In this document: positions 5,944 to 23,556 of the stretch, piece by piece
Numbering within the stretch: the stretch's first letter is position 1
Layout of the letters: each line of letters opens with the position of its first letter
Source: Escherichia coli
GTDB taxonomy: Bacteria; Pseudomonadota; Gammaproteobacteria; Enterobacterales; Enterobacteriaceae
NCBI RefSeq assembly: GCF_013315695.1
Contig: NZ_CP054353.1
Length of the DNA stretch: 64,000 nucleotides
Direction: 5' to 3' (one strand)
Translations under genes and position numbers: made by a program
The notes under the pieces: generated by a model
Databases searched by the model: none
Told to the model about the DNA's origin: nothing
Seen by the model: only the letters and a program-made list of their open reading frames with translations

Positions 5944-7917
5944 TCATCTCTGGAACACACACAATCCGTGTGCAGGTCCCTGCCAGACAGCCGTAATCAC
6001 TGGGTTATCCTCTCCAGCGAATGGGGGAATGGCGTGCCACTCCCCAGCAGGTAAAACAATCTCTGTTACCTCAAGCGTGGCGTTAATTGCGATCAAAAAG
6101 CGATCCGAGAGCAGAATTTGCAGCTGTTTCGGCCCGTTTTGCCACTCATCCGTGCTTAAAGGTTGAGCATATCGATTTAGCCAACGGACATTGCCGTCGC
6201 CTTCTTCCCACCAGCGATTCTCCATCAAAGCGGGAATGCGCTTGCGCAGATGGATTAACGCGGCGGTAAATGCGGTTAAACCACTGCTTGCCTGCGACCA
6301 GTCCAACCAGGTTAATTGGTTATCCTGACAGTAGGCATTGTTATTGCCATGCTGGCTGTGACCATGTTCGTCACCGGCCAGTAACATCGGCGTACCCTGG
6401 GAGAGCAACAACGTTGTTAACAGGGCGTGAATGCTGTCGCGCCGCCGTTCAACCAGATCAAGAGTACCGCCTAACCCTTCTTTACCATGATTGTTACTGT
6501 AATTGTTGTTGGTCCCGTCGCGATTTTCTTCTCCGTTTGCTTCATTGTGTTTATGGTTGAAGCAAACGCAGTCGCGAAGCGTAAAACCGTCATGCGCGGT
6601 GACGAGATTAATCGCGGCACTCGGCAGACGACCATTACGTTTAAAAACATCGCTGGAGGCAGCAAAACGCCCGGCAAACGCCCCCAGAGGCAAATCATAA
6701 TGCAGCCAGAAACGACGGGCAGCATCGCGGAAATGATCGTTCCACTCGGCAAACAGCGGCGGGAAATTTCCCACCTGATAACCACCAGGAGCAATATCCC
6801 ACGGTTCAGCAATTAACTTCACCTGCGAGAGCACCGGGCAGTTCTGGATAGCGGTAAACAACGGCGCATCCTGACGGAACTCTGGCGTACGGCCCATGAC
6901 TGCCGCCAGATCAAAGCGGAAACCATCGACGTGGCAGGTTTCTACCCAATAACGCAGGCAAGCGCTGGCATAATCCACTACCGCCGGATGACTCAAATTG
7001 AGCGTGTTACCACAACCGGTCCAGTTGTGATAATCGCCGTCTTCTCTTATCCAATAATAGCTACGGTTGTCGATCCCACGCAGCGAGAATAACGGGCCGT
7101 CGAGGTCTAGTTCCGCACTATGGTTGAGCACGATATCAAGAATGACTTCGATACCCGCTTTATGCAGTGCTTTGATTGCATCGCGAAACTCATCCAGCGC
7201 CGTTTCTGGGGAGCAGGCATACGCCGGATGCAGCGCAAACATCGCCACCGGGTTATAACCCCAGTAGTTACTTAGACCCATACGTTGCAGGCGTGGTTCG
7301 CTGGCAAACTGCGCCACCGGCAGCAGTTCCAGCGCGGTAATGCCCAACTGTTTCAAATAGTTGATCATCACCGGATGCCCGAGGGCTTTATAAGTGCCAC
7401 GGATCTCGACCGGGATCTCCGGATGCAGGTACGTTAATCCTTTGACATGGGCTTCATAAATGATGGTGCTGCCCCATGGCGTGCGCGGCGGGGCATCATC
7501 TTCCCAGTCATAGTGATCAACCACCACTACGCATTTCGGCGCAATGGCGGCGTTGTCGCGATAGTCAGGTTCATTATGACCGGCGTGTAGCAGCGGGTTA
7601 TCTTTAAACTCCCCGTCAATTTGCCGCGCGCAAGGATCAATCAACAACTTCGCCGGGTTAAAGCGATGCCCCTCGGCGGGTTGCCAGGGGCCATGAACGC
7701 GATAACCATAACGCAAACCCGGACGCGCATCCGGCAGATAACCGTGCCAAATGTCGCCACTGTGCCCTGGCAAGTCATAGCGATGTTCCTGGCCATTGGC
7801 GTCAAAGACACACAGCTCTACCCGCTCGGCATGAGCGGAGAAAAGTGTGAAGTTGACGCCCTGACCGTCGTAATGCGCGCCGAGGGGTGCGGGTTTGCCA
7901 ATGGCGAGTTGTGTCAT
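5944..7917 (-). CDS. glgX: Glycogen debranching enzyme
   Basis: 657-aa ORF, GH13-type sequence; overlaps the glgB stop by 4 nt. Confidence 0.97.
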
Positions 7918-10372: not shown

Positions 10373-11476
10373 TTACGCCAGTTGACGAAGCATCCGACGC
10401 AGCGGCTCCGCGGCCCCCCACAGCAGCTGGTCGCCCACGGTAAAGGCTGACAGGAACTCCGGTCCCATATTCAGCTTACGCAGGCGGCCTACCGGCGTGG
10501 TCAGCGTGCCGGTAACGGCAGCTGGGGTTAGCTCACGCATAGTGATTTCCCGATCGTTCGGAACGACTTTCGCCCACGGATTGTGCGCAGCCAGCAGTTC
10601 TTCCACGGTCGGAATAGACACATCTTTTTTCAATTTAATAGTGAATGCCTGGCTGTGGCAGCGCAATGCCCCGACACGCACACATAAACCATCTACCGGA
10701 ATTACGGAAGATGTGTTGAGGATCTTGTTGGTTTCCGCCTGCCCTTTCCACTCTTCGCGGCTCTGACCGTTATCAAGCTGTTTGTCGATCCACGGAATCA
10801 GGCTACCCGCCAGCGGCACGCCAAAGTTATCTACCGGCAGCTCACCGCTACGGGTTAAGGTTGTGACTTTGCGTTCGATATCGAGAATAGCAGAGGACGG
10901 GGTCGCGAGTTCATCTGCCACATGGCCATACAGATGGCCCATCTGGGTTAATAACTCACGCATATGTCGCGCACCACCGCCGGAAGCGGCCTGGTAGGTT
11001 GCAACGGACACCCAATCAACAAGATCATTGGCGAATAAACCACCCAACGACATCAACATCAGGCTTACGGTACAGTTACCGCCAACAAAAGTCCTGATGC
11101 CATTATTTAATCCGTCGGTAATGACGTCCTGATTGACGGGGTCAAGAATGATGATGGCGTCATCTTTCATGCGCAGAGATGATGCTGCGTCAATCCAGTA
11201 ACCTTGCCATCCGCTTTCACGAAGCTTTGGATAGATTTCGTTGGTATAATCGCCGCCCTGACAGGTCACAATGATATCGAGGGCCTTTAGCGCCTCCAGA
11301 TCAAAGGCATCCTGAAGTGTGCCAGTGGTTCCGCCAAAAGACGGCGCAGCCTGACCAAGCTGAGAAGTAGAAAAGAAGACAGGGCGAATGGCGTCGAAGT
11401 CGCGCTCTTCAACCATGCGTTGCATGAGAACGGAGCCGACCATACCGCGCCAGCCGATAAAACCAACATTTTTCAT
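10373..11476 (-). CDS. asd: Aspartate-semialdehyde dehydrogenase
   Basis: ORF track starts 20 codons upstream; ATG at 11476 gives the 367-aa protein [17 protein letters not shown]... with the active-site [10 protein letters not shown]. Confidence 0.95.
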
Positions 11477-11667
11477 AAGCGTTTTTTCCTGCAAAGATGT
11501 GTGCTGTATAAATGTGCCGGTCTCCTCCTGGCACATCTTTCACCATACAAAAAGCAGCCAAAGTCGCAAGTGAAATTAATCAATGATAGCGAAGCCATCA
11601 GTAATGCGACTTATCCTGCTTTGTTAGCACGCAGAAAGTCCGCGGCAATTATCAGGGAATTTGAGTT

Positions 11668-12261
11668 ATGAATGAAATCATTTCTGCAGCAGTTTTATTG
11701 ATCCTGATTATGGATCCGCTCGGAAACCTACCTATTTTCATGTCCGTACTGAAACATACTGAACCGAAAAGACGGCGGGCAATCATGGTGCGAGAGTTGC
11801 TTATTGCTCTCCTGGTGATGCTGGTGTTCCTGTTTGCGGGTGAGAAAATTCTGGCATTTCTCAGCCTGCGAGCAGAAACCGTCTCCATTTCTGGCGGCAT
11901 CATTCTGTTTCTGATCGCCATTAAGATGATTTTCCCCAGCGCTTCAGGAAATAGCAGCGGGCTTCCGGCAGGTGAAGAGCCGTTTATCGTGCCGTTGGCA
12001 ATTCCGTTAGTCGCCGGGCCGACTATTCTCGCCACGCTGATGTTGTTGTCTCATCAGTACCCGAATCAGATGGGACATCTGGTAATTGCTCTGCTGCTGG
12101 CCTGGGGTGGCACCTTTGTCATCCTGCTACAGTCTTCGCTATTTTTACGTCTGCTGGGCGAGAAAGGGGTGAATGCACTTGAACGCCTGATGGGATTGAT
12201 TCTGGTGATGATGGCAACTCAGATGTTCCTCGACGGCATTCGAATGTGGATGAAGGGGTAA
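11668..12261 (+). CDS. yhgN: MarC-family (UPF0056) inner-membrane protein
   Basis: 197-aa hydrophobic ORF, divergent from asd. Confidence 0.9.
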   Translation: MNEIISAAVLLILIMDPLGNLPIFMSVLKHTEPKRRRAIMVRELLIALLVMLVFLFAGEKILAFLSLRAETVSISGGIILFLIAIKMIFPSASGNSSGLPAGEEPFIVPLAIPLVAGPTILATLMLLSHQYPNQMGHLVIALLLAWGGTFVILLQSSLFLRLLGEKGVNALERLMGLILVMMATQMFLDGIRMWMKG

Positions 12262-12269
12262 GGTTCAAA

Positions 12270-12306
12270 CAGGTGCTGCACACAACCAGACGCGGCACCT
12301 GTTTTA
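12270..12306 (+). terminator. Rho-independent terminator of yhgN
   Basis: CAGGTGC (12270..12276) pairs with GCACCTG (12295..12301), followed by TTTT; ends immediately before the stop of the DprA-like gene on the other strand. Confidence 0.6.
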
Positions 12307-13509
12307 TTACCTGAACTGATAATGACCTTCGCCCAATCGAATAACCCTTCCCTCTTCTTCTGCGCGGTTCAGCCACACACTAATTTGTTCGATGGTTAAA
12401 CCAGTACAAGACGCCAGCCTTTCAATACTTATCGATTCCTTTGCAAGGATCGCCAGTTCCGCCACAAAGAGTTGATAAAAATCGACAGGCGTATGCGCGG
12501 GCATTACTGCGTAATTTGCGTCATCTTCATGCAGCGAAAACAGTTCTGGTTGAACGTTACGGAGTGCTTTGTCATACATCAGCCCAGGAACGTCTGGCAG
12601 TCTGATCGTCACATTCTCAGCCTGTTCAGCACTCCATGACGCCCCATTTTCTACTAATCGTGAATTGGCTGATTGCACATCCTGATTTGGTTTAACCAGA
12701 ACAGGCAGCCACTGATGTTTTAACGCCTCCATCGCTCCGGTTATCGTTCCACCGGTCATTCCCGCACGTACAACCATTGCGCTTTCAGCAAGGCAATAAA
12801 TATATTTATTCCGCGCCATTGCATTGCCGACGGTGAAACGTACCTCTGGGTAAAACGGTGAAATCAACACCAGGTTGCCTGCTATAAGCCCTTCACGCCA
12901 TTTCACTAACGTACTCGTTTTTAACAAGCTATCAGCTAATACGCCAACGGCAGTTCCCCCGGCCTCCAGTGCCGACGCCATTGCACATTCATCAATACCT
13001 CGCGCACCACCAGAGATAACGCAAATCCCCTGTTGGGCCAGTTTCGCTGCCAGTTGTTGGGTATAGCGCAAATCGGCAGTCGGAGCATCTCGCGAGCCAA
13101 CAATCGCCATACCTTCCGCTTGCAGTAATGCTTTATTCCCGCAGCCAAATAAAACGGGAGGTGCATCCGTTCGCAATCGGTTTTTCAAGCGAACGGGATA
13201 ATCGGCATCTCCGCGGGTTAAGATCCATAAACCGGCGCGTTGCCACTTATCTACCGCCAACGCCAGACTATGACCACGCGCCAGCAAGCCAAGAATACGC
13301 TCCTGAGAAATACGCGGATCGCTCCAGCCTGTAAGTTTCTCTTGCGGTTGCGGCACCAGAAGATCGGCGGGACTGATACGTTGGTGCTTCAGCCATAATG
13401 CAAACTTCCCCCATTCACTATTACTAAGAGGTTTATACTCACTCGCCGCCGCGCGAGAAAAATCGCTGGTTAGCAGGAGAGTTGCTTGTGCATTGGCTGA
13501 AAGATTCAT
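12307..13509 (-). CDS. DprA/Smf-like protein; putative partner (PsyrA/RqlI-like) of the upstream helicase
   Basis: 400 aa from ATG at 13509..13507 (the ORF-track start at 13602 lies inside the upstream gene). Rossmann motif VISGGARGIDECAMASAL typical of DprA, and a C-terminal winged-helix-like tail. Start shares one base with the upstream stop (TGATG). Confidence 0.75.
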   Translation of the reverse strand: MNLSANAQATLLLTSDFSRAAASEYKPLSNSEWGKFALWLKHQRISPADLLVPQPQEKLTGWSDPRISQERILGLLARGHSLALAVDKWQRAGLWILTRGDADYPVRLKNRLRTDAPPVLFGCGNKALLQAEGMAIVGSRDAPTADLRYTQQLAAKLAQQGICVISGGARGIDECAMASALEAGGTAVGVLADSLLKTSTLVKWREGLIAGNLVLISPFYPEVRFTVGNAMARNKYIYCLAESAMVVRAGMTGGTITGAMEALKHQWLPVLVKPNQDVQSANSRLVENGASWSAEQAENVTIRLPDVPGLMYDKALRNVQPELFSLHEDDANYAVMPAHTPVDFYQLFVAELAILAKESISIERLASCTGLTIEQISVWLNRAEEEGRVIRLGEGHYQFR

Positions 13510-15605
13510 CAATTTTTTACCGAGGTAGAAGCAAGGGCAAGAGGATAAACCGTCGGGCAACCTGCCTGGCGTAACAGTGCTGTCAGAACTGTCAGCGTCC
13601 ATGCAGAATCCACGATATCATCAACCAGCAACGCCGGACCTGGCATCAAAGGAGGGGTAATCACAAACGCCCCGTCGAGATTTTGACACTGGTGAAAACG
13701 GTTTTGCTGCATTTTCTGCGGTGGATTGTCCACGACTTTTTCAATGGCATCAATAAAAGGTAAGCCAAGTTTCGCCGCCAGTCGCCGGGCAAAATCAGGA
13801 ACCAGGTCGAGGTGCCTTAATGAAGGAACGCAGCATACCCAGGTTGGTTCAGGATGCGGATTCCAGCGTTGGCGAACCATTTCCGCACATGCTTCTACCA
13901 GCTCATCACTTAAGCGCCCCGTTTTTTTCTCCTGTGCTACCTGCTTTCCCCACCCGGAATCTCCCCAACGAGAAAGGATTCGCCCCGTAGATCCTTGTAA
14001 ACCCGCAGGCAAGTTCCCTTTAAATCCGTATTGCGTAAAAGCCCCAGCTGCCACCTGTTTATTGAGATTTAACGGCAGGTCAGCGTGTTTAATAAATAAA
14101 TTTGCCGCATGGAGTAAGCCGCTATCAATGTCGGGCGACAATAACGGATGCTGAAGACAACTGCTACATTTACCACAACGTTCGGCACTTGGCTCATCGA
14201 GTGCACGGCGCAGAAATTGCATTTTGCACTCCTTGGTCGTGATATAGCTTTCAACGTCTGCCAGTTCACTTTTTCTCTGATTCATCAAATGGTTAATTCG
14301 TTCATGATCAGGAGAAAAACTGACGATAGTTCTGCGCCATAATTTCTCGGTATACACCACAGGCGATGGATTTTCCGCTACCAATAATTTCAGTGCTTTT
14401 TCTATTTGCCCATAACGAAGATTCGTCCGTTGTTCAATGCCTCGTAGGGTAAGACCGTCATTCTCGCTAAGTACGTTGAGTATTTCATGAATTTGCGCCT
14501 CCGCAGGAAAGGCGCTTTCACGGAAGAATTGATGAATAGCGCGGTCTTCACCACCACAAAGCAATATGCCAACTGCGGAATCTATAGCACGCCCGGCACG
14601 CCCCACCTGTTGGTAGTAACCGACAATAGACCCCGGCATCTGATAATGAATGACGAAACCTAAATCAGGTTTATCAAACCCCATACCTAATGCCGTCGTC
14701 GCGACCAGCACTTTGATTTTATTTGCCAGCAGTGCCTGCTCCAGATATTCCCTGGCAGTATTAGAATCTTCCGCGCCTTCACAAGTCACGCCGCTGTAGT
14801 AAGCAAATGCACTGATACCATTTTTCCTTAACCACTCGGCGACAAGTTCAGCATCGCGAGTCGTCAGGGTATAAACAATTCCCGATTTGGAAAACTGAGG
14901 GATAACCGTTGCTAACCATGCCAGACGGGATGACTGTTCTCCTAAGACTAAGGCATCAAGCGCCAAACTTTCGCGAGCCAGCGTTCCACGCTGAATCACA
15001 ATGTCACCCAATTGCTGACGGATATCCTCAACAACACGGTTATTCGCTGTCGCGGTTGTACCCAGAACAGGGGTATTCGCAGGCAGTTGGCGCAAAATAT
15101 CTAATATACGTCGGTAATCCGGGCGAAAATCGTGGCCCCAATCAGAGATGCAGTGCGCCTCGTCGACCACAAGCAAGCCAATACGATCGGCTATAGGATA
15201 TAAAACCGTTTCGATAAAGTCCTGGTTTGCCAAACGTTCCGGGGAAACCAGCAAGCAATCGACCTCACCTTGCAGCAACTTATCGCTAATGCGCTGCCAT
15301 TCTTCCCTGTTTGTAGAATTCAACGTTTCAGCCGTAATACCTAACCGTTCAGCGGCGGCAACCTGGTTACGCATCAGGGCAAGCAAAGGAGAGATGATAA
15401 TTGTCGGGCCAGCGCCGCGATCGCGGAAGATTTTACTGGCGATGAAGTACACGGCACTTTTCCCCCAGCCGGTGCGCTGTACAACCAGCAGTTTTCGCCG
15501 CTGATTAACCACTGCATCTATGGCTTCCCATTGCCCTTCCCTGAAAGTAGCGGTGGTATTTCCTAACATCCGCTGTAAAAGCAATTCAGCTCCGTGCTTT
15601 TCCAT
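13509..15605 (-). CDS. RecQ-like DEAH helicase fused to a C-terminal ComF-type PRTase-like domain (PsyrT/RqlH-like)
   Basis: 698 aa. Helicase motifs TGWGKS, VVDEAHCISDWGHDFRPDY, LGTTATA, ATTALGMGFDKPD, YYQQVGRAGRA; CGKCSSC zinc-like motif; C-terminal segment with LLVDDIVDSAWT resembling the PRPP-binding loop of type-I PRTases. Confidence 0.8.
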   Translation of the reverse strand: MEKHGAELLLQRMLGNTTATFREGQWEAIDAVVNQRRKLLVVQRTGWGKSAVYFIASKIFRDRGAGPTIIISPLLALMRNQVAAAERLGITAETLNSTNREEWQRISDKLLQGEVDCLLVSPERLANQDFIETVLYPIADRIGLLVVDEAHCISDWGHDFRPDYRRILDILRQLPANTPVLGTTATANNRVVEDIRQQLGDIVIQRGTLARESLALDALVLGEQSSRLAWLATVIPQFSKSGIVYTLTTRDAELVAEWLRKNGISAFAYYSGVTCEGAEDSNTAREYLEQALLANKIKVLVATTALGMGFDKPDLGFVIHYQMPGSIVGYYQQVGRAGRAIDSAVGILLCGGEDRAIHQFFRESAFPAEAQIHEILNVLSENDGLTLRGIEQRTNLRYGQIEKALKLLVAENPSPVVYTEKLWRRTIVSFSPDHERINHLMNQRKSELADVESYITTKECKMQFLRRALDEPSAERCGKCSSCLQHPLLSPDIDSGLLHAANLFIKHADLPLNLNKQVAAGAFTQYGFKGNLPAGLQGSTGRILSRWGDSGWGKQVAQEKKTGRLSDELVEACAEMVRQRWNPHPEPTWVCCVPSLRHLDLVPDFARRLAAKLGLPFIDAIEKVVDNPPQKMQQNRFHQCQNLDGAFVITPPLMPGPALLVDDIVDSAWTLTVLTALLRQAGCPTVYPLALASTSVKN

Positions 15606-15707
15606 CTTTATCTCCTGCGATCTTTAGGCAGTGATTAGAACGGATTATTAGCAGGTAAATTTGCGAGAGAGATCAAAAAGATGAAGAGAGGAGATAAGAG
15701 AAATGAA

Positions 15708-15735
15708 TTACTGCGAGCAAGCTCGCAGTAATTTG
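15708..15735 (-). terminator. Terminator-like perfect hairpin downstream of gntU
   Basis: TTACTGCGAGC-AA-GCTCGCAGTAA at 15708..15731, about 14 nt past the gntU stop, with T-rich flank. Confidence 0.5.
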
Positions 15736-15744
15736 TCGCAGTAA

Positions 15745-17085
15745 TTAACTCAACAGCTGGAACGCAATCATCCCAACGATGGCACCAACAGTGCCGAGTA
15801 TGGTTTCCATCATGGTCCAGGTTTTCAGCGTTTCGGCTTCGGTCGCGCCGGTAAATTTACCGAACAACCAGAAACCGGCGTCGTTAACGTGGCTGACAAC
15901 AATCGAACCACCGGCGATACAAATCGACAGCGCCGCCATTTGCGCACCGGAGTAGTTCAGTTGTTCAATAACCGGCATCACCAGTCCCACCGCCGTTAAA
16001 CAGGCAACGGTGGCAGAACCCTGAATGATGCGCACTGCAGCTGCCAGCACGAAGCAGGTGATGGCAATCGGCAGGCCCATGCCGGTTAACGCTTCGCCCA
16101 GTGCCGGACCTACGCCTGAGTCAACCAGCACCTGTTTGAACACGCCGCCCGCACCAATCACCAGCAGAATGATCCCCGCCGGTTGCAGCGCGTGACCGCA
16201 AATTTCCATCACTTTATCTTTCGGCATGCCCTGACGCATTGCCAGACCGTAAATCGCCACCAGGCAAGCAACCAGAATCGCGGTAAACGGATGACCAATA
16301 AACTCGAACCATTCGTAAGCAGTAGAGCCTTCTGGCACAAAACGCGCGGCAATGGTTTTCAGCCCCACCAGCACCAGTGGCAACAGGATCAGCGACAGGC
16401 TGAATCCGAAGGACGGCATTTTGCCTTCGCCGAGATGCGGTTCGCTGATGTCGTCAGGAATATGCAACTCCACGTAGCGGCTGATGAAATTACCCCACAG
16501 CGGCCCGGCAATAATCATTCCCGGAATTGCCGCACACAGGCCAATCAGGATCATCCAGCCAAAGTCGGCGTTCATCTGCGATGCCAGCAGCATTGGCGCT
16601 GGTCCAGGCACCAGGAACGCAGCCGCGGCCGCCACGCCTGCAAATAATGGGATTACCAGCTTCACCAGGTTCGTACCGGTGTGGCGCGCCATTGAGAAAG
16701 CAACGCTAATCAGCAGAACAATCGCCACTTCAAAGAACAACGGCAACGCACAGACCAGCCCCGCAAGGCCGATGGCATAATGCGCGCGGCTGTGACCGAA
16801 GGATTTGAGCATTTTGACGGCAATCTGATCGACTGCGCCGGTTTCATGTAAGATCTTGCCAAACATGGCTCCCAGGGCGACAACCACCGCCAGGAAGCCG
16901 AGGGTGCCTCCCATCCCTTTTTCCATCGTCGCTGCGATTTTATCGAGCGGCATACCGGAAAAAAGGCCAGCCCCCATAGACACCACCATTAAAGCCAGGA
17001 AAGCGTGCATACGCGCCTTCATGACTAAAAACAGCAGCAGTAAAACAGACCCTACTGCTGTTAAAACAAGCGTTAATGTAGTCAC
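15745..17085 (-). CDS. gntU: Low-affinity gluconate:H+ symporter
   Basis: 446-aa GntP-family permease; annotated start is GTG at 17085..17083, 3 nt after the gntK stop (see finding on the internal hairpin). Confidence 0.9.
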   Translation of the reverse strand: MTTLTLVLTAVGSVLLLLFLVMKARMHAFLALMVVSMGAGLFSGMPLDKIAATMEKGMGGTLGFLAVVVALGAMFGKILHETGAVDQIAVKMLKSFGHSRAHYAIGLAGLVCALPLFFEVAIVLLISVAFSMARHTGTNLVKLVIPLFAGVAAAAAFLVPGPAPMLLASQMNADFGWMILIGLCAAIPGMIIAGPLWGNFISRYVELHIPDDISEPHLGEGKMPSFGFSLSLILLPLVLVGLKTIAARFVPEGSTAYEWFEFIGHPFTAILVACLVAIYGLAMRQGMPKDKVMEICGHALQPAGIILLVIGAGGVFKQVLVDSGVGPALGEALTGMGLPIAITCFVLAAAVRIIQGSATVACLTAVGLVMPVIEQLNYSGAQMAALSICIAGGSIVVSHVNDAGFWLFGKFTGATEAETLKTWTMMETILGTVGAIVGMIAFQLLS

Positions 17086-17088
17086 TAC

Positions 17089-17616
17089 TTATTTGCCTTT
17101 TTTAATAACCTCAATGGTGCTTGCCACAACACCTTCCAGCGGTTGATCGATATCCACCACCAGTACATCGGTTTCGTCCGCACCCGGCTCCTGCAGCGTT
17201 TCAAACTGCGTCACTAACATTTGGGTTTTAAAGAAATGGCCTTTGCGCGCTTTCAGGCGGCTTTCAATCACATCAAAATCGCCTTTCAGGTAGATGAACG
17301 AGAGATTCGGATTACCTTCACGCAGCAAGTCGCGATAGTGTTTTTTCAGTGCAGAACAGACGATCAGCGACACTTTATTGGTACGCTGCATGGCAAACGC
17401 GGCGTCGTTCAGCGCCTGCAACCACGGTTTGCGATCGTCGTCATTCAGCGGTTCACCAGACGCCATTTTTTCGATATTGCGCCGTGGATGGAGGAAATCG
17501 CCATCAAGAAACGCGGCATGAAGTTGATGCGCCACTTCACTGGCGACCGCAGATTTGCCGCTGCCCGATACGCCCATCAAGACGTAAATGTGGTGATCAT
17601 GGTTAGTCGTGCTCAA
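17089..17616 (-). CDS. gntK: Gluconokinase (thermoresistant)
   Basis: Protein matches GntK from (L)STTNHDHHIYVLMGVSGSGKS (P-loop); the codon at 17616..17614 is TTG, so the gene seems to use a TTG start; the ORF track extends 7 codons further up to another TTG. Confidence 0.9.
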   Translation of the reverse strand: MSTTNHDHHIYVLMGVSGSGKSAVASEVAHQLHAAFLDGDFLHPRRNIEKMASGEPLNDDDRKPWLQALNDAAFAMQRTNKVSLIVCSALKKHYRDLLREGNPNLSFIYLKGDFDVIESRLKARKGHFFKTQMLVTQFETLQEPGADETDVLVVDIDQPLEGVVASTIEVIKKGK

Positions 17617-17646
17617 AGTGGTGCCCCCACAATACAAGAATTAAAA

Positions 17647-21886: not shown

Positions 21887-23065
21887 ATGAGTAATATTGT
21901 TTACCTGACAGTAACGGGAGAACAACAAGGAAGCATCTCCGCAGGTTGTGGGACTTCTGAGTCTACAGGTAATCGCTGGCAGAGCGGGCATGAGGATGAA
22001 ATATTTACATTCTCACTCTTAAATAGTATTACTAATACGGGGCTTGGTTCACAGTTCCATGGTATAACATTTTGTAAATTAATTGATAAAAGCACTCCAT
22101 TATTTATTAATTCCATTAACAATAATGAACAATTATTTATGGGATTTGACTTCTATCGAATAAATAGATTTGGTAGATGGGAAAAGTATTATTATATACA
22201 ACTAAGAGGCGCTTTTTTATCGGCTATTCATCATCAGATCATTGAAAATCAACTGGATACAGAAACAATAACTGTTAGTTATGAATTTATCCTCTGTCAA
22301 CATATTATCGCAAATACCGAGTTCAGCTATTTGGCACTCCCTGAAAATTATAACTGTTTGTTTTTACCAAATTCAAAAAACCAAACAAATAATCGTTTCA
22401 AAACGTTAAACAGCAAAGCTATTGGCAGGCTACTTGCTGCTGGTGGCGTATACAATGGGAACATTGAAGGATTCAGAGATACTGCGGAAAAACTGGGTGG
22501 AGATGCAATAAAAGGCTATGATCAAATACTAAATGAAAAAACAGCGGGCATAGCGATAGCAACAGCATCTATTCTTTTAACAAAGCGTTCTAATGTTGAT
22601 ACATATACAGAAATAAATAGTTACTTAGGCAAACTTAGAGGTCAACAAAAACTTCTTGATGGTATAGACATAATAGAAATAATATACATTAAGAGACCTT
22701 CAAAAGACTTAGCTAACTTACGAAAGGAGTTTAATAAAACTGTAAGAAAAAATTTTCTTATCAAACTTACAAAAACCTCCGAAGCATCTGGAAGATTCAA
22801 CGCCGAAGACCTTTTAAGAATGAGAAAGGGCAATGTTCCTCTAAATTATAATGTTCACCATAAACTATCTCTAGATGATGGTGGTACTAATGATTTCGAA
22901 AATTTAGTATTAATCGAAAACGAACCATATCATAAAGTTTTTACTAACATGCAATCACGAATAGCTAAGGGAATATTAGTAGGTGAAAGCAAAATCACTC
23001 CCTGGGCCATTCCATCTGGCTCAATTTATCCTCCCATGAAAAATATTATGGAACCCACAAAATGA
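21887..23065 (+). CDS. yhhZ: Hcp-family (T6SS tube-like) protein with C-terminal HNH-type nuclease motif; orphan Hcp-toxin fusion
   Basis: 392 aa; Hcp-like N-terminus MSNIVYLTVTGEQQGSISAGCGTSESTGNRWQSGHEDEIFTF; C-terminal NYNVHHKLSLDDGGTNDFENLVLIENEPYHKVF (HH..N..H pattern); AT-rich codon usage. Confidence 0.85.
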   Translation: MSNIVYLTVTGEQQGSISAGCGTSESTGNRWQSGHEDEIFTFSLLNSITNTGLGSQFHGITFCKLIDKSTPLFINSINNNEQLFMGFDFYRINRFGRWEKYYYIQLRGAFLSAIHHQIIENQLDTETITVSYEFILCQHIIANTEFSYLALPENYNCLFLPNSKNQTNNRFKTLNSKAIGRLLAAGGVYNGNIEGFRDTAEKLGGDAIKGYDQILNEKTAGIAIATASILLTKRSNVDTYTEINSYLGKLRGQQKLLDGIDIIEIIYIKRPSKDLANLRKEFNKTVRKNFLIKLTKTSEASGRFNAEDLLRMRKGNVPLNYNVHHKLSLDDGGTNDFENLVLIENEPYHKVFTNMQSRIAKGILVGESKITPWAIPSGSIYPPMKNIMEPTK

Positions 23066-23556
23066 TGACTAAAACCCAAATAAATAAATTAAAAAAAATG
23101 ATGAATGATTTAGACTATCCATTTGAAGCACCGCTCAAGGAATCATTTATTGAAAGTATAATCCAAATAAAATTTAATTCTAATTCAACTAATTGCCTGG
23201 AGAAGTTATGTAATGAAGTTAGTATTCTCTTTAATAATCAACCTGATTATCTTACTTTTTTAAGAGCAATGGATGGATTCGAAGTTAATGGATTACGATT
23301 ATTCAGCCTCTCGATTCCAGAACCTTCAGTTAAAAACCTTTTTGCCGTAAATGAATTTTATAGAAATAATGATGATTTCATAAACCCTGATCTACAAGAA
23401 CGGTTAGTGATCGGGGATGATAGCATTTCAATATTTACTTATGACATTAAAAATAACTTTTTTGAAATTAGAGATAATATTGGCACAGAAAATATATTCA
23501 GTTCGTTTAGTGATTTCTCTTCATTCTTAAACGAAATCATGGACAGTTGTTCATAA
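23062..23556 (+). CDS. yrhA: Hypothetical protein, candidate immunity protein for the YhhZ nuclease
   Basis: 164-aa ORF whose ATG overlaps the yhhZ stop (ATGA); AT-rich; immunity role inferred from arrangement only. Confidence 0.65.
   Translation: MMTKTQINKLKKMMNDLDYPFEAPLKESFIESIIQIKFNSNSTNCLEKLCNEVSILFNNQPDYLTFLRAMDGFEVNGLRLFSLSIPEPSVKNLFAVNEFYRNNDDFINPDLQERLVIGDDSISIFTYDIKNNFFEIRDNIGTENIFSSFSDFSSFLNEIMDSCS

Follow-up and report, generated by a model that had tools for sequence, protein, structure and literature searches.

The rqlH–rqlI (psyrT–psyrA) junction of Escherichia coli: a conserved stop/start overlap, a probable 400-aa antitoxin start and plausible translational coupling

The rqlH and rqlI genes of E. 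coli F11 encode proteins of 698 and 400 aa, respectively, and constitute an operon as evidenced by RT-PCR (Russell and Mulvey, 2015; PMC4670107). In that strain the toxin causes SOS induction and filamentation, RqlI supplied from a plasmid gives rescue, the 400-aa form of RqlI is functional, and the two proteins co-immunoprecipitate via the PRTase domain; an alternative 431-aa start and translational coupling are not discussed for F11 RqlI (PMC4670107). Under the name PsyrTA, with RqlHI as alias, the pair is also listed as a defence system, for whose homologues phage protection has been reported, and a construct deleted for psyrA proved impossible to transform (Millman et al., 2022; bioRxiv 2022.05.11.491447). 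One native E. coli PsyrTA examined in another study, by contrast, gave no protection and led to a growth defect on over-expression only. PsyrTA of Pseudomonas syringae (Sberro et al., 2013) comes from a different genus but has the same architecture and gene order as the locus described here. The literature searched contained no mechanistic or structural paper devoted to PsyrTA and did not mention translational coupling of the system.

The locus under study lies in a 64,000-nucleotide stretch of E. coli DNA, hereafter referred to as the window, which is chromosomal and differs from isolate AF3 by 7 mismatches over the 64 kb. The first-pass annotation had described a helicase gene followed by a DprA-like gene and regarded the two as a toxin/antitoxin-like pair, and both full-length PADLOC matches and the literature identify them as the known PsyrTA/RqlHI system. 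The features considered below, all on the minus strand, are as follows.

15612..15616, minus strand: AGGAG, the psyrT Shine-Dalgarno (SD) sequence, 6 nt before the ATG at 15605.
13509..15605, minus strand: rqlH/psyrT, RecQ-like helicase with PRTase, toxin, 698 aa (PADLOC, Pfam, NCBIfam).
12307..13509, minus strand: rqlI/psyrA, DprA-like antitoxin, 400 aa, with the probable true start at ATG 13509-13507.
13507..13511, minus strand: TGATG stop/start overlap, read directly from the sequence.
13519..13522, minus strand: CGGT, invariant columns in 42 aligned junctions (overlapping clade).
13510..13602, minus strand: probably spurious 31-codon 5' extension of psyrA inside the PRTase-coding end of psyrT.

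The helicase protein matched the PADLOC PsyrT profile (PDLC03928) over residues 3-697 with E=0 and 1064 bits, carried the Pfam domains DEAD, Helicase_C and RecQ_Zn_bind, and scored 252.8 bits with NCBIfam recQ_fam, above the cutoff of 219.8. Its translation shows the PRTase motif LLVDDIVDSAWT; the C-terminal PRTase motif, VDDIVDSAWT, contains the DIVD motif of the RqlH PRTase that was mutated in F11 (PMC4670107). The DprA-like protein aligned over its entire 400 residues with positions 1-397 of the 398-position PADLOC PsyrA profile (PDLC03927, 4.4e-201) and contains the Pfam domain DNA_processg_A (PF02481, 4.7e-50). Thus, the locus combines a RecQ helicase toxin with a C-terminal PRTase and a DprA-like antitoxin of about 400 aa, and is E. 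coli RqlH/RqlI (PsyrT/PsyrA), a known toxin-antitoxin and anti-phage operon. The species, the operon, the sizes and types of the proteins and the position of the toxin gene in front are the same as in F11, whose rqlHI, as judged from the published description, represents a further allele of this locus. Some 30% of E. coli genomes carry rqlH-rqlI, which is located between yhgN and gntU. Sequence searches of the PDB returned DprA, ShosA and RecQ-family relatives, and no entry for PsyrT, PsyrA or RqlH/RqlI.

ShosTA resembles PsyrTA in having a DprA-like antitoxin and a toxin working through its PRTase domain, yet it is a separate family. The ShosT toxin is not known to carry a RecQ helicase module, and the similarity of PsyrA to PADLOC ShosA (3e-27) is confined to the DprA core (residues 85-272), with PDB 9vzo ShosA matching at 7.8e-8.

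On the minus strand the junction reads TCG GTA AAA AAT TGA TG AAT CTT. The toxin stop TGA occupies 13511-13509 and the ATG 13509-13507, so that base 13509 is common to both codons. The longest psyrA ORF in the ORF list, in comparison, spans 12307..13602 (431 aa, ATG 13602-13600) and runs (13602-13509)/3 = 31 codons into the helicase gene. The one-base overlap and the 31-codon run-in noted in the first-pass annotation were both exact when coordinates and arithmetic were re-read. A single one-base overlap is unremarkable, as such junctions are common: RefSeq gives three other 1-nt overlaps (glgC/glgA, nikA/nikB and nikC/nikD) and nine 4-nt gene overlaps within the 64-kb window. What does exceed chance at the psyrTA junction is the conservation of the stop-ATG spacing. 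When junctions were located by tblastn anchoring in 81 psyrTA loci from many phyla, psyrT was directly upstream of psyrA on the same strand in all 81, and the distance from the toxin stop to the antitoxin ATG was between −4 and +6 nt, likewise in 81/81. Forty loci fell into the −4 class (ATGA), 27 into the +1 class and 12, including the window, into the −1 class, with one locus each at +2 and +6.

In order to define the start of psyrA, its N-terminus was compared with those of 119 full-length homologues of 47-72% identity. All but one of these (118/119) begin with MN(L)S at the codon corresponding to ATG 13509, that is Met32 of the long ORF, and M1 forms an invariant alignment column; the 31-codon extension is missing in the same number of homologues and in all of those from outside E. 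coli. The PsyrA profile match, too, starts at Met32 of the 431-aa form. An in-frame stop lies less than 31 codons upstream of the psyrA ATG in 53 of the 81 loci, and within three codons of it in eight, while 48 have no in-frame start whatever upstream and only three, the window included, carry an ATG at codon −31. These comparisons, together with the published 400-aa protein, indicate that the psyrA start is most probably ATG 13509, giving 400 aa, and bear out the earlier view of the ORF-track start at 13602 as an artefact. The ATG at 13602-13600 arises from the helicase codons GCA TGG (Ala-Trp), and the peptide sequence tied to this start is MDADSSDSTVTPGR. The 431-aa ORF would accordingly be an over-extension resulting from two coincidences: the toxin gene is open in its −1 frame at this place, and GCA TGG spells ATG.

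RefSeq, which agrees with our psyrT coordinates, nevertheless models psyrA as a 431-aa protein (e.g. WP_072146068.1) overlapping psyrT by 94 nt. That this model is correct, with rqlI starting at ATG 13602 and sharing 31 codons with rqlH out of frame, appears very unlikely to us. It has in its favour that 12307..13602 is the longest ORF, that PGAP annotates a 431-aa RqlI in all four E. coli records checked (the form is present on 568 contigs), and that ATG 13602 is kept in all four E. coli alleles examined, although this last point says little since the alleles are at least 97% identical. In addition to the homologue N-termini, the upstream stops and the functional 400-aa RqlI of F11, it is opposed by the anti-SD pairing at 13602, which at −3.1 kcal/mol gives no SD there either, and by the size of the 94-nt same-strand overlap, an outlier in a window where the next largest measures 11 nt. 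The sole polymorphism within the extension, a change at 13584 in O55:H7, is synonymous in the helicase and turns Asp into Asn in the extension frame. As a coding test of the extension, E. coli allele diversity was uninformative because the alleles are too similar, with one or two differences per 171 nt, one of them in the extension. Even less probable is a start at the in-frame TTG 13512-13510, one codon before the ATG, which would yield 401 aa. This TTG adjoins the ATG, a TTG is also found at this place in two other loci (L069 and L075) and a GTG in two more (L009 and L039); it results, however, simply from the −1 geometry (N-TGA-TG), and in the 40 ATGA loci the codon before the psyrA ATG is no start codon (e.g. 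CTC or TTC) while the ATG itself is invariant.

On comparative evidence, then, the RefSeq rqlI model seems to be 31 codons too long, and this over-extension is the only new point of the present analysis, the remainder being already known. Earlier publications cover the operon, its nature as a toxin-antitoxin system, the antitoxin of 400 aa and a near or overlapping junction, so that little new biology is added. The over-extension is of practical consequence, as expression, deletion or modelling of RqlI/PsyrA based on RefSeq coordinates would append a spurious tail to the N-terminus or encroach on the PRTase domain of the toxin.

The sequence preceding the psyrA ATG was then considered with regard to initiation. 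Whereas psyrT is preceded by an SD with an anti-SD duplex of −7.4 kcal/mol, both candidate psyrA starts reach only −3.1 kcal/mol, which in the window corresponds to the 41st percentile of the within-gene background, as against a family median before psyrA of −6.0 kcal/mol (14th percentile). The psyrA start in E. coli appears to have no SD of its own. The CGGT at 13519-13522 forms part of an SD-like GGTG(A) in the family that ends 8 nt before the ATG and is degenerate (GGTA) in the E. coli allele of the window. At this motif, G is the last base of the Ser/Thr codon in 51 of 52 loci; Ser is encoded by TCG in 47/50 cases against a baseline of 17.5%, while neighbouring Ser codons vary freely, and Val by GTG or GTA in 52/52. 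As CGGT is thus invariant at synonymous positions, selection on the junction RNA is implied. We rejected a hairpin that would mask the junction: the predicted minimum free energy at the psyrA start (−24.3) hardly departed from the mean of shuffled sequences (−24.2; z = −0.03), and the consensus fold computed by RNAalifold from 42 junctions had −0.55 kcal/mol, with two invariant pairs and no covariation. An Rfam scan of positions 11500-16500 returned no matches at E ≤ 1, and a crude scan of the minus strand within psyrT revealed no sigma-70-like promoter.

The genes are co-directional, their stop and start overlap, and this geometry is conserved among the loci. Such arrangements are common, being present in more than 30% of E. 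coli gene pairs. Classic TGATG pairs are trpE-trpD and trpB-trpA. In the study of Huber et al. (2019; PMC6728339), 13 of the 14 overlapping gene pairs tested were coupled; rqlHI resembles these pairs in being co-directional, in its TGATG/ATGA overlap and in its weak or absent downstream SD. It differs from the strongly coupled E. coli pairs, for which a structure in the initiation region is predicted (PMC6728339), none being found at the rqlHI junction. Expression of the two proteins had been proposed to be coupled; this holds at the transcript level by virtue of the RT-PCR data from F11 (PMC4670107), whereas at the translational level we infer it from the conserved geometry. Given this geometry, the invariant CGGT and the apparent lack of an own SD in E. 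coli, translational coupling of rqlI to rqlH is plausible. Ribosomes that complete the toxin would continue on to the neighbouring antitoxin ATG at 13509 or re-initiate there, and the antitoxin, which binds the PRTase domain of the toxin, would then be made whenever, and about as often as, the toxin. Taken together, we consider it likely that rqlI has a 400-aa start at 13509, that its 431-aa form is an over-extension and that termination-reinitiation couples it to rqlH.

It is conceivable, though we think it rather unlikely, that ATG 13509 is used but that rqlI is translated independently of rqlH by de novo ribosome loading, the overlap reflecting compact packing. The psyrA start indeed has no masking structure, and an A-rich, unstructured leader could allow independent initiation; moreover, among the pairs of Huber et al. 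the sole uncoupled E. coli pair, bioBF, lacked a structure in its initiation region, and menDH was coupled to only about 60% (PMC6728339), and depletion of RRF left coupling unchanged genome-wide. Against independent translation stand the apparent absence of an SD in the window, a stop-start distance of at most 6 nt in all loci across phyla, the CGGT invariance at synonymous positions and the preponderance of coupled pairs among those tested.

A different link between the two genes would arise if some ribosomes slipped by −1 on the heptamer A_AAA_AAT (13518-13512), which lies two codons ahead of the rqlH stop, to yield a fused RqlH-RqlI protein about 1,100 aa long. This sequence has the correct X_XXY_YYZ register, and the −1 frame leads into rqlI without meeting a stop; the heptamer occurs, however, in the window and one further locus (L002) only among the 81 scanned, and no stimulatory structure was found downstream. 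AAT is moreover a weaker slippery codon in E. coli than AAG, which counts against a frameshift. A programmed −1 frameshift, which calls for a conserved heptamer with a stimulatory element, was rejected since A_AAA_AAT is not conserved, and we regard slippage at this site as highly improbable. If it did take place, a covalently joined toxin-antitoxin would add a cis-neutralised species to the system. As a milder alternative, CGGT and the spacing of at most 6 nt may enforce obligatory re-initiation, in which case the toxin:antitoxin stoichiometry would be fixed and the system would be sensitive to phage interference with translation. Returning to coupling by termination and re-initiation at ATG 13509, the conserved psyrTA junction offers a testable case of how a toxin-first toxin-antitoxin operon secures synthesis of its antitoxin.

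The junction of the two genes, read directly on the minus strand, is ...CCT CGG TAA AAA ATT GAT GAA TCT..., in which the helicase frame ends as TCG GTA AAA AAT TGA with its stop at 13511-13509, and base 13509 is common to this TGA and to the ATG at 13509-13507. The six-frame list holds the following ORFs:

15605..13509, minus strand, helicase ORF (rqlH or psyrT), 698 aa
13602..12307, minus strand, long form of the DprA-like ORF (rqlI or psyrA), 431 aa

Re-reading of the sequence and of this list confirmed the TGATG overlap and the run of the long ORF into the helicase gene (13602 − 13509 = 93 nt, i.e. 31 codons) reported in the first-pass annotation. According to the RefSeq annotation, three other gene pairs in the window overlap by 1 nt (glgC/glgA, nikA/nikB and nikC/nikD) and nine by 4 nt.

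The window is chromosomal E. coli sequence that shows seven mismatches to isolate AF3 over its 64 kb, and the gene pair is the published RqlH/RqlI system (PMC4670107), also named PsyrTA, which appears among the listed anti-phage defence systems. The helicase protein matched the PADLOC PsyrT profile over its full length (E=0, 1064 bits), was assigned to the RecQ family by NCBIfam, contained the Pfam domains DEAD, Helicase_C and RecQ_Zn_bind, and carried the PRTase motif LLVDDIVDSAWT at its C-terminus; the downstream protein matched PADLOC PsyrA (4.4e-201) and Pfam DNA_processg_A (DprA). RqlH and RqlI have been described as proteins of 698 and 400 aa, encoded on one transcript as detected by RT-PCR, which co-immunoprecipitate through the PRTase domain of RqlH, and RqlH is genotoxic via this domain without RqlI (PMC4670107). 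The identity with this known system bears out the earlier designation as a toxin/antitoxin-like pair. Both the system and its 400-aa start had been published before; the present analysis adds only a comparative proof of the start, a conserved junction signature and the flagging of a RefSeq over-extension.

A search of 5.8 billion proteins yielded 4944 homologues, the best 120 of which were aligned, one partial sequence being left out of the start-site count. In 118 of the 119 (47-72% identity; Citrobacter, Klebsiella, Providencia, Vibrio, Shewanella, Marinobacter and others) the protein began MN(L)S...AQATLLLT in exact register with the long ORF's Met32, and the 31-codon extension was found only in the E. 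coli cluster representative. Likewise, position 1 of the PADLOC PsyrA profile aligned to Met32, that is, to ATG 13509. Eighty loci from Gamma-, Alpha- and Deltaproteobacteria, Chloroflexi, Acidobacteria and others were then anchored by tblastn, giving 81 with the window. In 53 of the 81, a stop in frame with the conserved ATG lay less than 31 codons before it, and in eight within three codons (e.g. TGA TTC ATG); 48 had no upstream in-frame start codon of any kind, and an upstream ATG occurred in only four. The ATG at −31 is made by the helicase codons GCA TGG (Ala-Trp, PRTase motif), and elsewhere this position is CTG, TTG or GTG, depending on which synonymous base ends the codon before it. 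Taken together, these comparisons argue that the long ORF is a chance product, owed to a −1 frame that happens to be open and to a single synonymous base, in agreement with the first-pass view of the ORF-track start as an artefact, and that ATG 13509 is very probably the true psyrA start.

Both forms circulate in databases, with at least 1000 contigs carrying the 400-aa form and 568 the longer, 431-aa one. A length of 400 aa is given in GenBank, in other sources and in the 2015 paper; RefSeq/PGAP gave 431 aa in all four E. coli records checked (e.g. WP_072146068.1, WP_001443175.1), annotated in the window and in loci fetched for comparison (L handles) as follows:

12307-13602, minus strand, window, 431-aa form
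6108-7403, locus L001, 431-aa form
408-1703, loci L082, L083 and L084, 431-aa form

This model creates a 94-nt same-strand overlap with the helicase gene, the next largest in the window being 11 nt, and the RefSeq form is probably a systematic start-site mis-annotation. Over-extension by the longest ORF is routine in the window, as for asd (387 aa versus 367 aa annotated; 10373-11536, minus strand) and gntK (182 aa with a TTG start versus 175 aa annotated; 17089-17637, minus strand), and ORF-track starts are generally unreliable there.

Across the 81 loci, the spacing between psyrT stop and psyrA ATG was −4 (ATGA) in 40, +1 (TGAnATG) in 27, −1 (TGATG or TAATG) in 12, among them the window, and +2 and +6 in one each. 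In the +1 clade, GGAG or GGGG stood out clearly 5-8 nt upstream. CGGT was without variation in 42 aligned junctions of the overlapping clade, where a GTG or GTA Val codon was present at every locus and the codon before it had G as its third base in 51 of 52, being TCG for 47 of 50 Ser codons (Ser-codon baseline 17.5%) and ACG where the residue was Thr. The two Ser codons just upstream varied freely (TCA/TCT/TCC). This pattern indicates that selection acts on the junction RNA itself, putatively on a Shine-Dalgarno (SD)-like GGTG(A) whose end lies 8 nt short of the ATG. The E. coli allele of this element is GGTA, with an anti-SD pairing of only −3.1 kcal/mol (41st percentile of within-gene windows); the start at 13602 scored the same, and the psyrT start has AGGAG (−7.4 kcal/mol).

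The first-pass annotation had further proposed that expression of the two proteins is coupled, an interpretation that is supported as a whole: it holds for the transcript, by RT-PCR (PMC4670107), whereas coupling of translation is what we infer rather than what has been shown. In favour of the latter are the tight geometry at every locus, the lack of a separate SD for psyrA in E. coli and the failure to find a promoter-like site inside psyrT; moreover, in Huber et al. (PMC6728339) 13 of 14 tested overlapping pairs were coupled. Against it counts the unmasked start, as no structure masking the psyrA start was found (fold z-score −0.03) and the consensus fold of 42 junction sequences was essentially empty; in the same study E. 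coli bioBF, which is structure-free, showed no coupling and menDH a coupling of only about 60%. RRF depletion left coupling unaltered (Saito et al.), a result that speaks against re-initiation of the simple kind in E. coli. On balance, we lean towards a substantial dependence of RqlI synthesis on RqlH translation. The toxin-first order would then place production of a protein that binds the last-made (PRTase) domain of the toxin beside the toxin and in step with it.

A toxin-antitoxin fusion through ribosome slippage is also conceivable, because rqlI lies in the −1 frame and an in-register slippery heptamer is present:

13518-13512, minus strand, A_AAA_AAT, −1 slippery heptamer two codons before the rqlH stop

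However, this heptamer occurred in only two of the 81 loci scanned, the window and L002 (Silvania hatchlandensis), and neither folding nor the 42-junction consensus revealed a stimulatory structure at it; owing to this confinement it is probably incidental. The TTG at 13512, considered as a start, was rejected as a by-product of the TGATG geometry without conservation, and no Rfam family matched in the region.

Among 5426 complete E. coli genomes, 1641 carry the full-length pair between yhgN and gntU, and in the others the site is empty. The cassette is a presence/absence polymorphism that lies exactly between the yhgN stop and the stop of gntU:

12262-15744, window, rqlHI cassette, about 3.48 kb
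563-618, empty-site locus L085, 56-nt K-12-type intergenic hairpin replaced by the cassette

The cassette has its own hairpins at both ends (about 12268-12303 and 15706-15733), and no target-site duplication was evident at it. In L083 (E. coli O55:H7 RM12579; 1610-3705) psyrT is a pseudogene, in which a 1-nt deletion at nt 516 leads to a stop at codon 203, beside an intact antitoxin gene, as would be expected when a TA pair decays. At 15706-15733 (minus strand), directly past the stop codon of gntU and with the rqlH start about 100 nt further downstream, lies the perfect 12-bp-stem inverted repeat AATTACTGCGAGC-TTGC-GCTCGCAGTAATT, with a partial direct copy (AATTACTGCGA) in front of it. The simplest reading of this repeat is the gntU terminator; an operator for RqlI, which is HTH-bearing, would be another possible role.

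Elsewhere in the window, a gene annotated tssD (Hcp; 21887-23556, plus strand) lies apart from any T6SS cluster within the window, encodes 392 aa and overlaps the next gene, yrhA, by 4 nt. Typical Hcp proteins are far shorter, and this gene may encode an Hcp that carries an effector fused at its C-terminus and be followed by an immunity gene.
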